Shown piece by piece: positions 3,617 to 60,918 of a DNA stretch of 64,000 nucleotides. Under the pieces are notes generated by a model. That model did not search any database and was not told the origin of the DNA. It worked only from the letters and a program-made list of their open reading frames with translations. The translations under genes and the position numbers were made by a program. This DNA comes from Vicinamibacteria bacterium (lineage in GTDB: Bacteria > Acidobacteriota > Vicinamibacteria > Marinacidobacterales > Marinacidobacteraceae), in assembly GCA_964291235.2 (NCBI GenBank), contig OZ219816.1, forward strand, positions 864,001 through 928,000. The letters are read 5' to 3'. The first letter of the stretch is position 1. Each line of letters starts with the position of its first letter.

Positions 3617-4804
3617 ATGACCGATCCCGCAATCCATCTCGCCCAGCGTATTTCTGCGATTTCTCCCTCGCCGACGATGGCGGTCATGGCGGAGGCGATG
3701 CGCCTTCGCGCCGCCGGAGAGAACGTGGTGGACTTTTCGGCCGGACAGCCCGACTTCGATACGCCGTCGCTCGCGAGGGAGGCCGGGATCCAGGCCATCG
3801 AATCGGGATACACCCGGTACACCCCGAACCCGGGGGCGCCCGATCTGCGGGCGGCGGTCGCTGATTGCTACCGGCGCGACTTCGACCTCGACTTCGGGGC
3901 CGGCAACGTCCTCATCACCTCGGGAGGCAAGCACGCTCTCACCGGGTTGTTGCTCGCCACCTGCGAGGAAGGGGACGAGGTGGTGATCCCGACGCCCTAC
4001 TGGCCGACCTTCCCCGAGCAGGTGAAGATCGCCGGGGCCGCGCCGGTCCTCGCCCGCGCCGGAGAAGAGAGCGGGTTCCGGCCCACCCGGGACGTCATCG
4101 AGCCAGCGATGACCGATCGCACCCGGTGCATCATCTTCAACATTCCGGGGAATCCGTCCGGGGTGGTGCTCTCGGCGGGTGAGTTGGAGGCGGTGGCGCA
4201 CCTGGCGCTCGAGGCCGACGCCTACCTGCTCTGGGATGACACCTACGCCCGGCTCACCTTCGAGCCGGCGCCGGAAGGCGCCTACCGGCGGATGCAGGAA
4301 ATTCTCGGACACCGGTTCGTCATTGCCGGCGGAGCCTCGAAGACCTACGCCATGACTGGCTGGCGGCTCGGGTGGGCGCTCGGCCCGGAACCGGTCATCA
4401 AGGGCGCCGCCTCGCTGCAGAGCCAGATGACGTCCAACGCGAGTTCCATTTCACAAAAGGCGGCGCTCGCCGCGGTGACGGCGGACCCCGCCGGTTTCGC
4501 CTGGATGACCGAGGAGTTCGCCCGCCGGATGGTGCGGATGCGGAACGGCCTGCTGCAGATCGAGGGGCTCCGCTGCGGGCCCGCCGACGGCGGCTTCTAT
4601 CTGTTCCCGAACTTCGAGGCGGTCCTGCGGCCGGGCGAAGGGTCCGGCGAGCTCGCTGCCGCGCTGCTCGACGAGCAGCGGGTCGCCACGGTGCCGGGAG
4701 TGGCCTTCGGCCACGACACCCACCTCAGGCTCAGCTACGCCACTTCGGACGAGATCATCGACGAGGGCGTGGGGCGGATCCGGCGGTTCTTCGCGGCGCG
4801 CTGA
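3617..4804 (+). CDS. Class I/II PLP-dependent (aspartate-type) aminotransferase
   Basis: GQPDFDTP, YTPNPG, NPSG, SKTYAMTGWRLG (PLP lysine), LRLSYA. Confidence 0.92.
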   Translation: MTDPAIHLAQRISAISPSPTMAVMAEAMRLRAAGENVVDFSAGQPDFDTPSLAREAGIQAIESGYTRYTPNPGAPDLRAAVADCYRRDFDLDFGAGNVLITSGGKHALTGLLLATCEEGDEVVIPTPYWPTFPEQVKIAGAAPVLARAGEESGFRPTRDVIEPAMTDRTRCIIFNIPGNPSGVVLSAGELEAVAHLALEADAYLLWDDTYARLTFEPAPEGAYRRMQEILGHRFVIAGGASKTYAMTGWRLGWALGPEPVIKGAASLQSQMTSNASSISQKAALAAVTADPAGFAWMTEEFARRMVRMRNGLLQIEGLRCGPADGGFYLFPNFEAVLRPGEGSGELAAALLDEQRVATVPGVAFGHDTHLRLSYATSDEIIDEGVGRIRRFFAAR

Positions 4805-4933
4805 GACGGCGAACCTACGGTCGGAACCACTACCCCATACAGAGCAACGAGCGGGCCGTCCCTCCGCCATTGGTCCAGTCTGCACGCGATCGAGAAGCTA
4901 AGGGGCGGGACCTGCGCGGCAACCGTTCCTAGC

Positions 4934-5033
4934 TAGCCCGGATTTCTCATCCCTCCGTCGTAGAGATCTATGCAGGATGGTTCCCCTCTCGGCGAGAACC
5001 CAACTAGCCTTGATGTCGGACAGGCACGGGAGC
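4934..5033 (+). repeat. Left part of a composite intergenic repeat, homologous to 44481-44629 and interrupted by IS110 copy 1
   Basis: TAGCCCGGATTTCTCAT...CGTAGAG...GGATGG.CCCCTCTCGGCG...CTAGC.TTGATGTCG recurs at 44481-44615 on the same strand. Confidence 0.8.
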
Positions 5034-5286
5034 CCCCTATAGGATCGGCGACGTCCTGCGGGAGCCGAGATTCGGCTGCCGTTGTATCAACTCAGGTTGG
5101 CCAATCCGCCGGGAGTACTAACTGAGCCCCGGTGCCGCGAGCACCTACGGTGGACACGTACCCCGACGGATGGCCGTGATGGACGACCAGTGGAGAGTCG
5201 GTTCCAATCGAGAACCAGTATAGGGGCTGGACAGCATCGCGGCGCGGCGGACCTCCGGCGGAGCGCAAGCTCGAAGGAAGACAGCG
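5034..5286 (+). ncRNA. Candidate bridge RNA in the IS110 left non-coding end (copy 1)
   Basis: 253-nt non-coding end with several hairpins. AGCCGA-GAT-TCGGCT (5063-5077) reads AGCTGA-GAT-TCAGCT in copy 2, a compensatory change. Expression and exact ends are not visible from sequence. Confidence 0.65.
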
Positions 5287-6549
5287 ATGAAGCAGAAGCT
5301 GAGCTGGTTCGTGGGCATCGACTGGGGCGAGCAGAGCCACCAGGTGTGCCTGTGCGACAGGCGCGGGAAGGTGCGCGGGGAGCGCGCCTTCGCGCACAAG
5401 GGATCGGGGCTGGCGGCCCTGGTGAAGTGGCTTAGGAAGCAGACGGGTGTGCCGCCGGCGCGGGTGGCGGTCGCGATCGAGCGGCCGGATGGGGCGGTGG
5501 TGGCGACGCTGCTGGAGGCGGGGTTTGCGGTCTATGCGGTGAACCCGCGGCAGACGAGCCACCTGCGGAAGTTCATCTCCCACCCGGGGCACAAGAACGA
5601 CCGGCGGGACGCCCGGATGTTGGCCACCACGCTGCAGGCGAGCCTGGCGGGGTTCCGCCTGCTGGTGCCGCTACCGGGGTTGGTGCTGCGGCTGCGGGAG
5701 CGGACCCGGACGGCGGACCGTCTGCTCCAGGAGCAGGTCCGGCAGTGCCTGCGGATCCGGAGTGCGCTGGTGGACTACTTCCCGCAACTGCTGGAGGTGG
5801 CCGGCGAGGCGAAGAACCTGGGGGCTCCGTTCTTCCGGGAGTTGTGGGCTCGGGCTTCTACGCCGGCGAAAGCGCGGAAGGTGTGGTTGTCCACGTTGGA
5901 GAAGCTGGTCCGGCGGTATGGAGTGACCCGGATCAGCGCCGCGCGGATCCAGGCGTTGTTCCGGGAGCCGGCGCTGGTGATGGCGCCGGGGGCGACCGAG
6001 GCGGCGGTGGAGACGATCCGCACGGCGCTCGCACAGTTGGAGGTTGTGCGGGCGGAACTCGTCCGGGCGGAGGGCCAGATGACCCAACTGCTGGACGAGT
6101 TCTCGGAGACGGCGGAGGCCGGGGGTGGTTCGGATGCCACGGGCCCGGATCTGGTGAGCGCGTTGCGCTCGCGCCCGGGCGCGGGGGACAAGGCGCTGGC
6201 CCGGTTGTTCGCCTGGGGCTTCGAGGCGCTCTCGGAGGGGAACTACCGCCGTCTGCGCGCCTACTGTGGGGTAGCCCCGATCGAGGACCAGTCCGGCAAG
6301 TCCGCACAGCTCCGGCAACGGCGCGCCGTTCCCAGTTCGCTGCAACACGCCACCTACATCCTGGCGCGGGGGGTCGTCCGCTGGGACGAGAAGGTGGCGG
6401 CCTACAACCGGAAGTTGAAGGCGGAAGGGAAGCACACGGCCCGGCGCCACCGGAGCATCGCGGATCAACAACTCCGGGTGCTGTGCGCGATGGCCCGGAA
6501 CCGAACCCTCTTTGATCCCAACTTCTCCCAGAAGCGGAGGGCCGCCTAA
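5287..6549 (+). CDS. IS110-family DEDD transposase/recombinase
   Basis: FVGIDWG (D), AIE (E), KNDRRD (D..D) in the RuvC-like domain; C-terminal AYCGVAPIEDQSGK with the conserved serine. Confidence 0.95.
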   Translation: MKQKLSWFVGIDWGEQSHQVCLCDRRGKVRGERAFAHKGSGLAALVKWLRKQTGVPPARVAVAIERPDGAVVATLLEAGFAVYAVNPRQTSHLRKFISHPGHKNDRRDARMLATTLQASLAGFRLLVPLPGLVLRLRERTRTADRLLQEQVRQCLRIRSALVDYFPQLLEVAGEAKNLGAPFFRELWARASTPAKARKVWLSTLEKLVRRYGVTRISAARIQALFREPALVMAPGATEAAVETIRTALAQLEVVRAELVRAEGQMTQLLDEFSETAEAGGGSDATGPDLVSALRSRPGAGDKALARLFAWGFEALSEGNYRRLRAYCGVAPIEDQSGKSAQLRQRRAVPSSLQHATYILARGVVRWDEKVAAYNRKLKAEGKHTARRHRSIADQQLRVLCAMARNRTLFDPNFSQKRRAA

Positions 6550-6589
6550 CGCTCTTGCGTTCTCGTGGAAAGTCCACCGGGAGAACTGG

Positions 6590-6743
6590 GCCGGCCTCCA
6601 GGCCGGCACAGCCCGCCGCAGGCGGGCGGCGGGACGGACCTGTCTGGCCAGGATGGCTCCCTCTCTCGGAGAGGACCCCGTGAGCGCGAGCAGCGAGGAA
6701 TCGCCCGCGGCGCTGCGCGCCGCGGTGCCGACCTGGAGGTCGG
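6590..6743. repeat. Inverted pair of REP-like palindromes with a conserved spacer
   Basis: GCCGGCCTCCAGGCCGGCAC (6590-6609) and GTGCCGACCTGGAGGTCGG (6725-6743); the whole unit is homologous to 44630-44784. Confidence 0.85.
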
Positions 6744-7070
6744 AGCCCGGCCCGTGCGGGAGCCTGAGTGCCGCGGCTGCTCCGCGTCCACCATCGGGCC
6801 GATCTGCGAATGGACCCGGCTGCGCCAATGCATCGAGGGCCAGCCAGCGGGTGGTTGGGCGCTCTCCGGCCCTGAGGGTGACAGAAATGTCGCTGTGGGG
6901 ATACCGGCCGGAGGTGAACATGTCGCAGTGGCCCGATTTCCGGGCTCAGCATGTCGCAGTAGCGGCACCGGCGCGGTGGAATCTGGGGCAGTATCGGAAC
7001 CGGCGCGTCAAGAGACACTTCCAGGCAGTTGGGAGACACCTACTCTTGCGCACTGCGGGGGTGAAGAGCG

Positions 7071-7310
7071 ATGCGCCGCCCGCGGGCCTGCGGCCCGCTG
7101 TGCCGGCCTGGAGGCCGGCGTTCCCGTGCCGGTGGTGCTGGGGGGGGCTGGAGGGCGACGTGCGTTTCGCTCCCCGGTGGGGAGCGATGCCGGCCGGAGG
7201 CCGGCGCTCCGCTGTCGCGCGTTGTCGGGATGGGGCGCGGTGCGCCGCCCGCGGGCCTGCGGCCCGCTGTGCCGATCTGGAGATCGGCGTTCCCGTGCGG
7301 GCGGTGCTGT
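7071..7310. repeat. Cluster of three REP-like palindromes (BIME-like)
   Basis: REPs at 7100-7130, 7188-7210 and 7269-7298. 7071-7140 is duplicated at 7241-7310; 7153-7211 recurs at about 60692-60750. Confidence 0.85.
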
Positions 7311-44483: not shown

Positions 44484-44784
44484 CCGGGATTTCTCATACT
44501 GCCGCCGTAGAGGTCGCCGCGGGATGGTGCCCCTCTCGGCGGGACCCCCACCAGGGGGCCTTCGCCGGGAGTTCGCCGGGAGCACTGGGCACGGCCCCCC
44601 TAGCGTTGATGTCGCAAAGGCCAGGGAACGCCGGCCTCCAGGCCGGCACAGCCCGCCGCAGGCGGGCGGCGGGATGGGCCTGGCTGGCCGGGGTGGCTCC
44701 CTCTGTGGGAGGGGATCCCGTGAGCGCGAGCGGCGAGGAACCGCCGGCGGCGCTACGCGCCGCTGTGCCGACCTGGAGGTCGGC
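44481..44784 (+). repeat. Composite intergenic repeat with an inverted REP pair; its first REP is the empty homolog of the IS copy 1 site
   Basis: Collinear with 4934-5033 joined to 6590-6743; REPs at 44630-44649 and 44765-44784. Confidence 0.85.
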
Positions 44785-44824
44785 CCAGTTCTCCCGGTGG
44801 ACTTTCCACGAGAACGCAAGAGCG

Positions 44825-46087
44825 TTAGGCGGCCCTCCGCTTCTGGGAGAAGTTGGGATCAAAGAGGGTTCGGTTCCGGGCCATCGCGCACAGCACCCGG
44901 AGTTGTTGATCCGCGATGCTCCGGTGGCGCCGGGCCGTGTGCTTCCCTTCCGCCTTCAACTTCCGGTTGTAGGCCGCCACCTTCTCGTCCCAGCGGACGA
45001 CCCCCCGCGCCAGGATGTAGGTGGCGTGTTGCAGCGAACTGGGAACGGCGCGCCGTTGCCGGAGCTGTGCGGACTTGCCGGACTGGTCCTCGATCGGGGC
45101 TACTCCACAGTAGGCGCGCAGACGGCGGTAGTTCCCCTCCGAGAGCGCTTCGAAGCCCCAGGCGAACAACCGGGCCAGCGCCTTGTCCCCCGCGCCCGGG
45201 CGTGAGCGCAACGCGCTCACCAGATCCAGGCCCGTGGCATCCGAACCACCCCCGGCCTCCGCCGTCTCCGAGAACTCGTCCAGCAGCTGGGTCATCTGGC
45301 CCTCCGCCCGGACGAGTTCCGCTCGCACGACCTCCAACTGTGCGAGCGCCGTGCGGATCGTCTCCACCGACGCCTCGGTCGCCCCCGGCGCCATCACCAA
45401 CGCCGGCTCCCGGAACAACGCCTGGATCCGCGCGGCGCTGATCCGGGTCACTCCATACCGCCGAACCAGCTTCTCCAACGTGGACAACCACACCTTCCGC
45501 GCTTTCGCCGGCGTAGAAGCCCGAGCCCACAACTCCCGGAAGAACGGAGTCCCCAGGTTCTTCGCCTCGCCGGCTACCTCCAGCAGTTGCGGGAAGTAGT
45601 CCACCAGCGCACTCCGGATCCGCAGGCACTGCCGGACCTGCTCCTGGAGCAGACGGTCCGCCGTCCGGGTCCGCTCCCGCAGCCGCAGCACCAACCCCGG
45701 TAGCGGCACCAGCAGCCGGAACCCCGCCAGGCTCGCCTGCAGCGTGGTGGCCAACATCCGGGCGTCCCGCCGGTCGTTCTTGTGCCCCGGGTGGGAGATG
45801 AACTTCCGCAGGTGGCTCGTCTGCCGCGGGTTCACCGCATAGACCGCAAACCCCGCCTCCAGCAGCGTCGCCACCACCGCCCCATCCGGCCGCTCGATCG
45901 CGACCGCCACCCGCGCCGGCGGCACACCCGTCTGCTTCCTAAGCCACTTCACCAGGGCCGCCAGCCCCGATCCCTTGTGCGCGAAGGCGCGCTCCCCGCG
46001 CACCTTCCCGCGCCTGTCGCACAGGCACACCTGGTGGCTCTGCTCGCCCCAGTCGATGCCCACGAACCAGCTCAGCTTCTGCTTCAT
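44825..46087 (-). CDS. IS110-family DEDD transposase/recombinase
   Basis: 420 aa; I see 3 differences from copy 1 (LGAP/LGTP, EAAV/EASV, TGPD/TGLD). Confidence 0.95.
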   Translation of the reverse strand: MKQKLSWFVGIDWGEQSHQVCLCDRRGKVRGERAFAHKGSGLAALVKWLRKQTGVPPARVAVAIERPDGAVVATLLEAGFAVYAVNPRQTSHLRKFISHPGHKNDRRDARMLATTLQASLAGFRLLVPLPGLVLRLRERTRTADRLLQEQVRQCLRIRSALVDYFPQLLEVAGEAKNLGTPFFRELWARASTPAKARKVWLSTLEKLVRRYGVTRISAARIQALFREPALVMAPGATEASVETIRTALAQLEVVRAELVRAEGQMTQLLDEFSETAEAGGGSDATGLDLVSALRSRPGAGDKALARLFAWGFEALSEGNYRRLRAYCGVAPIEDQSGKSAQLRQRRAVPSSLQHATYILARGVVRWDEKVAAYNRKLKAEGKHTARRHRSIADQQLRVLCAMARNRTLFDPNFSQKRRAA

Positions 46088-46340
46088 CGCTGTCTTCCTT
46101 CGAGCTTGCGCTCCGTCGGAGGTCCGCCGCGCCGCGATGCTGTCCAGCCCCTATACTGGTTCTCGATTGGAACCGACTCTCCACTGGTCGTCCATCACGG
46201 CCATCCGTCGGGGTACGTGTCCACCGTAGGTGCTCGCAGCACCGGGGCTCAGTTAGTACTCCCGGCGGATTGGCCAACCTGAGTTGATACAACGGCAGCT
46301 GAATCTCAGCTCCCGCAGGACGTCGCCGATCCTATAGGGG
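46088..46340 (-). ncRNA. Candidate bridge RNA in the IS110 left non-coding end (copy 2)
   Basis: Homolog of 5034-5286; the 4 substitutions seen all preserve or improve hairpins. Confidence 0.65.
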
Positions 46341-60750: not shown

Positions 60751-60918
60751 ACGCTATGTCGGCGTAACGCCCCTGTGCCTGCGCCCCCCACCGGGAGAAC
60801 GGGCGCCAACCGAACTCGCTCGCGCGCTGACGCGCACCTCGGCGAGCAGCGAACGGAGTTCGCCGCCGTCAATCCCTACGCCGTGGGGCTGCGCCACCCC
60901 CTCCGCTACCCTGTCGCA

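Follow-up and report, generated by a model that had tools for sequence, protein, structure and literature searches.

A predicted bridge RNA in an IS110 element of a Vicinamibacteria bacterium and its probable target, an 18-base motif nested in REPs

An IS110 element of a Vicinamibacteria bacterium (GCA_964291235.2) most probably carries a bridge RNA in its left end and inserts at an 18-base motif, CCCCACCGGGAGAACTGG, that occurs in REPs and other repeats, together with a 3-base left context (probability about 0.85). This reading is built on observations: the anatomy of the sequence, the copies of the element, target sites that stand intact, and predicted guides that match the junctions and co-vary with them. 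The window, i.e. the whole stretch of DNA analyzed, comprises 64,000 nt (contig OZ219816.1, 864,001-928,000, forward strand). It contains two 1556-base copies, at 5034-6589 (plus strand) and 44785-46340 (minus strand), with 17 mismatches between them. A preliminary description had recognized both as IS110 copies, and excision of each reproduced exactly the strings quoted there. The features are as follows.

5023-5033, plus strand: left flank of the REP, GGCACGGGAGC; the predicted left target guide covers just its final 3-4 bases (GAGC)
5034-5037, plus strand: left part of the 18-base motif, CCCC, with the left CC core at 5036-5037; the motif is intact at paralogous sites
5038-6573, plus strand: body of copy 1, 1536 bp (1538 with one core)
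5040-5045, plus strand: TAGGAT, -10-like hexamer
5059-5081, plus strand: left-end stem-loop 1, with a compensatory change at pair 5066:5074 (copy 1, C:G; copy 2, T:A)
5104-5171, plus strand: predicted target-binding-loop arm; basal stem 5104-5118/5158-5171, hairpin 5131-5145
5124-5130, plus strand: predicted left target guide (LTG) GAGCCCC
5148-5155, plus strand: predicted right target guide (RTG) CGGTGG, 5148-5153, and handshake AC, 5154-5155
5172-5243, plus strand: predicted donor-binding-loop arm; basal stem 5172-5182/5235-5243, hairpin 5200-5216
5190-5199, plus strand: predicted left donor guide (LDG) GTGGAGAGTC
5219-5226, plus strand: predicted right donor guide (RDG) TATAGG, 5219-5224, and handshake GG, 5225-5226
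5287-6549, plus strand: recombinase gene, 420 aa, DEDD (RuvC-like) and Tnp domains
6555-6560, plus strand: TTGCGT, -35-like hexamer, right end
6574-6589, plus strand: right CC core, 6574-6575, and remainder of the 18-base motif, ACCGGGAGAACTGG, 6576-6589
6590-6609, plus strand: REP hairpin GCCGGCCTCCAGGCCGGCAC, beginning 14 bases 3' of the core
7100-7130, minus strand: plain REP without the 18-mer, GGCACGGGAAC plus hairpin
44765-44784, minus strand: REP hairpin GCCGACCTCCAGGTCGGCAC, right of copy 2; compensatory changes relative to the copy 1 hairpin
44801-46336, minus strand: copy 2 body, with its CC cores at 46338-46337 and 44800-44799 and the two parts of the motif at 46340-46337 and 44798-44785
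60786-60803, plus strand: bare 18-mer CCCCACCGGGAGAACGGG, one mismatch, outside a REP; the only one in the window

The assignment to the IS110 family was confirmed with Pfam. The recombinase matched DEDD_Tnp_IS110 (PF01548; residues 9-166; 4e-28; 98.6 bits, cut-off 29) and Transposase_20 (PF02371, the Tnp domain; 1.4e-8; 35.4 bits, cut-off 21.3), and it harbors the motifs GIDWG (D12), AIERP (E65), NDRRDARM (D105 and D108), and DQSGKS (S336). Comparison with solved transposases by phmmer gave ISCro4 (1.9e-7) and IS621 (2.4e-6), with residues 2-129 aligned. DQSGKS aligned with ESGSS of ISCro4, and its serine is probably the catalytic one, by analogy with the role that the report on IS621 states for S241 (PMC11208158). 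A scan of metagenome contigs with a four-protein alignment returned 16 loci, none of them in this subfamily and none above 40% identity. Among IS110 genes of congeners at greater distance (L015-L018; 43% and 37% identity), no gene had an 18-mer half adjoining it; L018 had one intact 18-mer away from its IS110 gene.

Collection of all copies in the genome yielded five full ones, every one on contig C2, adjoining a REP-like hairpin, and bounded by ...GGGAGC on the left and GCCGnnCTCCAGGnnnGCAC on the right. The hairpin begins 14 bases 3' of the core in all five. The 18-base motif CCCCACCGGGAGAACTGG is nested inside the REP hairpin units. At the REP position, 16 rows ended in CTGG, five of them IS ends, which left 11 intact 18-mers in other REPs. 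Genome-wide, the 18-mer gave 160 matches at up to two mismatches, of which four were IS right ends and 156 intact; the reversed-motif control gave 0. The exact 12-mer GAGCCCCCACCG had 21 unoccupied occurrences and five that the element splits, against 5 for the reversed-string control. REPs paralogous to the occupied ones contain the whole 18-mer at the insertion spot (e.g. C2:451800 and C2:1533280); the insertion point lies inside the nested 18-mer and is not set by the REP sequence itself. Nine of the 21 unoccupied exact sites are in REP context and 12 outside, compared with five of five insertions in REP context (hypergeometric ~0.03, for copies and sites that are not independent). Genome G014, from a congener, carries six near-identical copies of the element, five in REPs and one outside; the sixth sits at the end of a different repeat, and only the 18-mer plus AGC/GCCG are common to both repeats.

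The predicted guides read GAG, CCCC(C), and ACCG, i.e. three context bases followed by bases 1-9 of the 18-mer, and the REP hairpin or the flank GGCACGGGAGC was not supported as the recognized feature. We deduced that the target is the 18-base motif with three bases of left context rather than the REP as such. The sequences reported earlier for the plain REP at 7100-7130 and for the REP near 44630 were correct, as was the absence of the GGGAGC flank from all other REP matches in the window. The contrast between GGGAGC and GGGAAC flanks that had been noted is real; it tracks the presence of the 18-mer and not occupancy by the IS. The proposal of a programmable recombinase with its own specificity was supported as to the IS110 family and the bridge-RNA pattern, but not as to the REP as target, in whose place the nested 18-mer is proposed.

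The long non-coding left end, pointed out earlier, contains predicted loops that match target and donor in the pattern of the IS621 bridge RNA. An RNAalifold consensus of seven sequences (left end, ~250 bases) showed two arms within a closing stem, with 48 pairs; compensatory changes were seen in just 3 of these because the relatives are close. The single-sequence fold was no more stable than shuffles (z = -1.04), and an Rfam scan of 4800-7300 gave 0 matches at E up to 1. The four guide segments lie in internal loops of the two predicted arms, and their order and strand sense are those published for the IS621 bridge RNA. Matches in this element were 7/7 for the LTG, 6/6 for the RTG, 10 with one G:T for the LDG, and 6/6 for the RDG, and both handshake pairs matched 2/2. 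GAGCCCC matches the left target, and the left donor guide GUGGAGAGUC matches the right end of the element. The handshake model, as set out in the IS621 reports (PMC11208158, PMC11208160), expects each right guide plus handshake to be complementary to the junction. The reverse complement of RTG plus handshake, CGGUGGAC (CGGUGG+AC), is identical to the right junction GTCCACCG, and that of RDG plus handshake, UAUAGGGG (UAUAGG+GG), to the left junction CCCCTATA. The left guides appear to stop one C short of the target C-run, ending at the first core base.

Guides and flanks also co-varied. Loop GAGCCCC was paired with flank GAGCCCC(C) in five of five copies here and five of six in G014, and loop AGGCCCC with flank AGGCCCC(C) in all four cases found (L007, L022, L008, and L010). 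Among relatives, left donor guide GGAGAGU went with right end GGAGAGT and GGAAAGU with GGAAAGT. The exceptions were L013, with a mismatch between guide and flank, and L001, whose right flank diverges after GGGAGAA. A blind exact-match scan was ambiguous, giving also CGGGAGCC at 5059-5066 and CCCGGTG at 5128-5134 (shuffle frequencies 0.03-0.9); the loop positions were chosen over these other matches because of architecture and co-variation. Stem-loop 1, with the 8-base match of CGGGAGCC, was rejected as left target guide, as it did not track the flank in relatives. The basal stem of the target arm (CCGCCGGGAGUAC) was considered as a copy of the 18-mer and attributed to chance (alignment score 19, shuffle p = 0.086, a score equalled by a chunk of coding sequence).

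The preliminary description had placed a 1556-bp element, 5034-6589, in a variant of the plain REP, with GGGAGC on one side, GCCGG on the other, and no duplication. Its outermost bases, CCCC on the left and ACCGGGAGAACTGG on the right, are the two halves of the target motif, and comparison with intact sites indicates that these ends are too wide by 4 and 14 bases. In the redrawn element, 1536 bp lie between the two copies of a CC core (window 5036-6575), at 5036-5037 and 6574-6575; intact sites have the same CC at the matching point. No terminal inverted repeats were seen between TATAGGATCGG and GTGGAAAGT when the ends were compared by eye. We regard the wider ends as very improbable, and equally the circle junction that they imply, ...GGGAGAACTGG joined to CCCCTATAGG, i.e. 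...GAACTGG/CCCCTATAGG. Excision of 1556 bp does leave a string of plain-REP length with one substitution (GGGAGC for GGGAAC), and five plain REPs in the genome have GGGAGC directly on the hairpin. The 18 bases, however, are intact at 156 other places and also in genomes without this element, the same element occupies a non-REP repeat in G014, and the 14 right-hand bases are polymorphic although element bodies are identical. Since an intact 18-base motif occupies the paralogous REP position, GGGAGC^GCCGG is not the actual target, and the claim that both copies entered the same nucleotide of a REP was not borne out: the whole motif runs uninterrupted through that position in 11 other REPs. The motif could hardly have been spotted from the window, which has a single bare 18-mer, a 1-mismatch variant. 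With the wider ends, three of the four guides match exactly over 5-7 bases only (shuffle frequencies 0.2-0.97), and the 8-base match TATAGGGG (shuffle frequency 0.013) is equally good at the redrawn left junction. TTGCGT and TAGGAT are 17 bases apart only across the redrawn circle junction, as against 35 bases with the wider ends (hand counts). Seven public runs were listed as containing the stretch, none of them an RNA run. In short contigs of the public runs X1, X2, X5, and X6 over 4600-7000, none spanned an empty or circular form, and all joints were explained by paralogous repeats, which favors neither set of ends. The gene upstream of copy 1 (3617-4804) is present in 15 of 15 congeners at ~86% identity; no orthologous empty site was seen, the intergenic DNA being unrelated in the 12 congener loci with downstream sequence. 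Spread of the copies inside larger duplicated REP-bearing segments, without site-specific insertion, is extremely improbable. C2:869034, C2:2040967, and C2:1236560 do have in common ~100 bases of left and 51-154 bases of right flank, but likeness there is only 75-93% and is lost within 154 bases, against 99.9-100% for the elements themselves. For copies 0-1 mismatch apart, flank likeness covers no more than 103 bases on the left and 154 on the right or is not detectable, as for C2:1236560 and C2:1778008, which are identical over all 1556 bases. The sole difference between C2:869034 and C2:2040967, ACCAGG for ACCGGG, falls in the 14-base right part, which therefore behaves as flank. The flanks do not move with the element, since there are four hairpin variants with compensatory changes and the fifth copy has CGCAAGGGAGC. 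Judged by their limited flank likeness, the five copies are independent insertions.

The 18-mer is also a repeat of its own. Its copy number within the genus ranges from 8 to 1566, the latter in a 4.1-Mb congener. It usually has a GC prefix, giving 20 bases, usually replaces a dinucleotide, and is nested at fixed points of REPs and of a 186-base MITE, nearly identical copies of which in this genome differ in having it. At least 9 contexts were found, as well as tandem and inverted pairs; its orientation relative to replication showed no strand bias along either contig. The 18-mers might be scars, left when an element carrying the 4 + 14 bases loses its interior by deletion at the CC cores, so that it would make its own landing pads. 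Joining the left 4 and the right 14 bases of the element as first drawn gives precisely the 18-mer, genomes in at most 4 contigs that lack 18-mers also lack IS110 genes, and most 18-mer-rich ones have several; yet G019, assembled as a single contig, contains 70 18-mers without any IS110-family gene, and G001 has 747 and no gene of this subfamily. Moreover, the donor guides specify a donor without the 18 bases, most of the contexts are matched by no known guide of the subfamily, tandem and inverted pairs occur, and we could reason out no way for IS110-type recombination, as published, to copy a target to another place. An origin as scars is thus improbable. Tentative, and short of even odds, is the reading that the 18-mer is a mobile element far below MITE size, spread by unrecognized machinery, on which one IS110 lineage specialized as a safe and abundant landing pad, with sub-lineages tuning three guide bases to its contexts. 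Cyanobacteria have small dispersed repeats (SDR) of 21-27 bases, reportedly described by Elhai et al. in 2008 (Genome Res). They resemble the 18-mer, though not the IS, in being very short, highly repeated, nested in other repeats, present or absent among near-identical copies, and without a known mechanism; they differ in phylum and sequence, and the 18-mer here doubles as landing site of a putatively RNA-guided recombinase. No mechanism is known to have been assigned to very short mobile repeats since their first description. The 18-mer is a more unusual object than the IS110 element.

The IS1111 subgroup of IS110 (seekRNA) has the same recombinase family and inserts site-specifically into repeats; there, subterminal inverted repeats are present and the non-coding RNA is found downstream of the recombinase gene. 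The predicted structured region here is 5' of the gene, and only 24 bases separate the stop codon (6549) from the end of the body (6573) and the core, which places the element outside that subgroup. REP targeting and bridge RNAs have been published, and the element belongs to that known kind. Like IS621 of Escherichia coli, an IS110 element with a bridge RNA as described by Durrant 2024 (PMC11208160) and Hiraizumi 2024 (PMC11208158), it combines DEDD and serine recombinase domains with, upstream of the gene, a predicted non-coding RNA that would have target and donor loops. Further likenesses to the published account are predicted left guides in top-strand sense and right guides in antisense, a pair of handshake bases on the 3' side of every right guide that match the opposite partner, a duplicated 2-base core with one copy at each junction, and natural targets in REP regions. 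The promoter of IS621 is assembled across the circle junction (PMC11208160), and the predicted hexamers suggest the same here. In contrast to IS621 as described, the protein is only distantly similar (phmmer 2.4e-6), the left end has no Rfam match, the core is CC instead of CT, the left guides apparently pair only the first core base instead of both, and an 18-base micro-repeat nested in REPs is targeted instead of the REP itself. ISPpu10, ISPpu9, and ISPa11 are reported as REP-recognizing elements and likewise insert into one conserved intergenic repeat; for ISPpu10, named as an IS110 element, a target-side stem-loop is stated to add specificity (Tobes and Pareja 2006, PMC1525189; Na et al., 10.64898/2026.03.19.712850). 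The REP hairpin beside the core in all five copies resembles that arrangement, whereas the one G014 copy outside a REP departs from it.

For transcription, circle formation, and catalysis we infer the following course. The element would circularize, uniting ...GGAAAGT-CC-TATAGGATC..., so that the circle junction of the redrawn element would read ...GTGGAAAGT-CC-TATAGGATCGG... This junction would set the -35 (TTGCGT) and -10 (TAGGAT) hexamers at 17-base spacing, and the resulting promoter may drive both bridge RNA and recombinase. The donor loop would grip the junction through GUGGAGAGUC on the right end and UAUAGG on CC plus TATA, and the target loop would grip GAGCCCC|C ACCG through GAGCCCC on the left target and CGGUGG on CC plus ACCG. 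Strand exchange would take place at the CC core, aided by the handshake of AC with donor GT and of GG with target CC. The empty site would be GGGAGCCCCCACCGGGAGAACTGGGCCGG.

These results caution that the ends of IS110 elements cannot be defined by trimming to the nearest repeat. With its CC core, both handshake pairs, and co-variation of guide and flank within one genus, the element adds a cleanly readable, natural example of a predicted bridge-RNA system, here from Acidobacteriota. A genus with 8 to 1566 18-mers and a presumably programmable recombinase reading them is a system in which gain and loss could be followed.

The genome (3.45 Mb, 68% G+C, two contigs, C1 and C2) harbored five full-length copies of the element, every one on C2. 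They fell into two groups: members of the same group differed by 0-1 mismatches, members of different groups by 17-19. The window corresponds to C2:864001-928000. Its two copies, 5034-6589 (plus strand) and 44785-46340 (minus strand) as delimited in the preliminary description, comprised 1556 bases each and differed at 17 positions. The 420-aa product matched Pfam DEDD_Tnp_IS110 (4e-28) and Transposase_20 (1.4e-8), which bore out the earlier assignment to IS110, and was distantly yet significantly similar to the solved transposases of ISCro4 (1.9e-7) and IS621 (2.4e-6).

Relatives in public genomes came from Vicinamibacteria MAGs assigned to the same genus as the window: genome G014 had six near-identical copies and a decayed one, G004 had three copies and G013 had fragments. 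Of the 28 family genomes, 3 contained intact copies. No copy at this similarity was found in 16 genomes of two sister families, and metagenome contigs yielded only relatives of ≤40% identity. Within the collections searched, the lineage of the element is narrow. The seventh, more distant G014 copy (L023/L066, G014:C1:349102-353358; 68% identity) carried an in-frame TAG and an unrecognisable left junction, retained the loops and the right junction, and is probably decayed. The six near-identical G014 copies (L001-L006) contained an extra segment of ~216 bases between stop codon and right end (locus positions about 2737-2952), which the window element lacked; in the related copies L007 and L013 the segment after the gene was longer still.

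All five copies were located between ...GGGAGC and GCCGnnCTCCAGGnnnGCAC, one of them reading CGCAAGGGAGC in the flank. Their flanks comprised four hairpin variants whose changes preserved the stem. Flank similarity ended within 154 bases at 75-93% identity, whereas the elements were 99.9-100% alike, arguing for five independent, site-specific insertions. With all genomic copies collected and their flanks aligned, the same junction context recurred, so that the proposed site-specific placement beside a REP hairpin held. A census of the hairpin gave 539 strand-hits, the left flank being usually GGGAAC (166) and rarely GGGAGC (5). Only five of the 16 hairpins preceded by ...GGGAGAACTGG were element ends; the remaining 11 read GGGAGC-CCCCACCGGGAGAACTGG-GCCGG, with some variation in left flank and motif. 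A further repeat family (...GGATGGTTCCCCTCTCGGCGAGAACCC...) flanked REPs at window positions 4934-5000 and 6640-6700. The final 58 bases of the flank query had matches in over 20 paralogues, and the REPs here are composite units. A single Y1 transposase match (PF01797; C1:16598-16834) is a candidate for the REP-associated transposase of the roughly 250-300 REPs.

At those 11 hairpins, CCCCACCGGGAGAACTGG corresponded to the first 4 and last 14 bases of the element as originally delimited, directly joined. Since these outer bases stood joined without the element there and genome-wide, the ends were redrawn. If the 18 bases are the target, the element spans 5038-6573 between two CC dinucleotides (5036-5037 and 6574-6575), insertion is into GAGCCC-CC-ACCGGG, and the circle would be joined as GGAAAGT-CC-TATAGG. 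This placement has seven lines of support. The 12-mer GAGCCCCCACCG occurred intact 21 times and split by the element five times, and some intact sites lay in REPs whose wider flanks resembled the occupied ones, as expected of target sites. Relatives with the junction present all started with CC|TATA(G/C)GATC and had two or more further C ahead of it; all right ends read ...GGA(A/G)AGTCC|ACCGGG...; these common motif halves also favor the redrawn ends. Five near-identical G014 copies were in REPs and one in another repeat, at its end (...CTCAAGC | GCCGCCTGGGTTTTGCCACC...), which carried bare 18-mers in the window's genome. Outside the 18-mer, the two kinds of site had only AGC/GCCG in common, and one guide explains both only if the 18-mer is the site. 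TTGCGT (6555-6560) and TAGGAT (5040-5045) were separated by 17 bases across the redrawn junction versus 35 across the original one (counted by hand), so that a predicted promoter would assemble across the redrawn junction only. The sole difference between two otherwise identical copies fell in the right 14 bases, which thus behave as flank. Some observations weaken this placement. Short contigs from public runs covering the stretch contained paralog joints only, with neither a circle junction nor an orthologous empty site; the orthologous spacer in congeners was unrelated sequence, without an empty site. The right flank of L001 diverged after GGGAGAA.

Predicted guides provided the remaining support. 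A consensus fold of seven left-end sequences contained two arms within a closing stem, and guides were assigned by rules taken from the IS621 papers, as outlined there (PMC11208160, PMC11208158).

Features of window copy 1 (plus strand), predicted except for the reading frame
5287-6549: recombinase reading frame, 420 aa, the sole long one with a family match
5124-5130: left target guide GAGCCCC, left target in the same sense
5148-5153: right target guide CGGUGG, reverse complement of CC+ACCG
5154-5155: target-loop handshake AC, for GT ahead of the donor core
5190-5199: left donor guide GUGGAGAGUC, for right end GTGGAAAGTC with one G:T pair
5219-5224: right donor guide UAUAGG, reverse complement of CC+TATA
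5225-5226: donor-loop handshake GG, for CC ahead of the target core

CGGUGGAC was the exact reverse complement of the right junction and UAUAGGGG that of the left. The predicted guides fit the redrawn junctions and favor the 18 bases as target; the target loop would read three context bases plus nine bases of the 18-mer. Loop GAGCCCC was accompanied by flank GAGCCCC(C) in 5/5 copies here and 5/6 in G014, and loop AGGCCCC by AGGCCCC(C) in 4/4 copies (L007, L022, L008, L010). This co-variation supports the redrawn target; the left donor guide likewise tracked the A/G difference of the right end in relatives. Other points weaken the reading. L013 had one internal mismatch. The left guides were one C shorter than the five-C run of the target and stopped at the first core base, unlike those of IS621. 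The single-sequence fold was no better than shuffles, 3 of 48 consensus pairs co-varied, and Rfam gave no match. In stem-loop 1, copy 2 differed from copy 1 by C to T at 5066 and G to A at 5074, two sides of one base pair and, by sequence, a compensatory change inside one genome. A blind exact-match scan also yielded CGGGAGCC (stem-loop 1) and CCCGGTG (beside the hairpin); both were set aside, as they lay outside the loops and did not track the flanks of relatives.

The contrast between GGGAGC and GGGAAC flanks pointed out earlier is real, but it tracks the presence of the 18-mer. Repeats with an 18-mer mostly had GC before it, and paralogues without it AC, TT, AA or TA (exact-anchored counterparts were found for 66 of 121 18-mers). 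The 21 unoccupied exact GAGCCCCCACCG sites were distributed over REPs (9), the end of a MITE-like repeat (11) and elsewhere (1), and all five insertions were in REPs (hypergeometric ~0.03 by our own arithmetic, with sites and copies not independent). By analogy with ISPpu10, for which a role of a stem-loop near the target has been reported, the hairpin 14 bases downstream may possibly participate in insertion.

The 18-mer CCCCACCGGGAGAACTGG occurred 160 times genome-wide with ≤2 mismatches (83 exact), four as element ends and 156 bare (e.g. C2:451800, C1:932146 and C2:1999052); the reversed string gave none. Only one bare variant (60786-60803) was in the window, so the preliminary description had no fair chance of recognizing it. 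With ≤1 mismatch, the 18-mer was present in all 15 further genomes of the genus, at 8 to 1566 copies each, and in 5/9 genomes from other genera of the family; two sister families lacked it (0/16 genomes). The reversed control matched once in one genome and in no other. G019, a single contig, had 70 18-mers and no IS110-family gene, and G001 had 747 and no gene of this IS110 subfamily. Thus, the 18-mer does not depend on the element. The nearest precedent known to us is the small dispersed repeats of cyanobacteria. The positions of the 18-mer within REP flanks, REP arms and the MITE-like repeat were fixed, and it also formed tandem pairs and inverted pairs around a REP loop. In another genus, a short array (L039, G018:C1:61900-62500) alternated 18-mers and REP hairpins with a 44-base period, showing that such units can be co-amplified. 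No replication-strand bias of the 18-mers was found, nor any route by which IS110 chemistry would duplicate the element's target; the likeness between the stem of the target-loop arm and the 18-mer was within chance.

The MITE-like repeat (~186 bases, ends CAGCCTGTGG...CCACAGGCTG) had 41 full copies genome-wide (e.g. C2:1998895-1999125). It directly followed the recombinase stop codon in L008, L009 and L010, with TTAA flanks in L008 and L010. In the related G013 elements one copy was inserted in the non-coding right end, so that these elements had been hit by another mobile element. Twelve of the 41 copies contained the 18-mer, at five different positions whose combinations failed the four-gamete test. 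The five most similar pairs (97.8-98.3% identity; median 87.7%) all differed in 18-mer state, pointing to gain or loss that is recent and separate from the spread of the repeat.

Insertion sequences that target REPs were catalogued as early as 2006 (PMC1525189), and the bridge-RNA mechanism was described in 2024 in the IS621 papers; excision and fidelity of such elements are the subject of later studies. The element fits this REP-targeting, bridge-RNA kind in every feature tested and is therefore classed within it.
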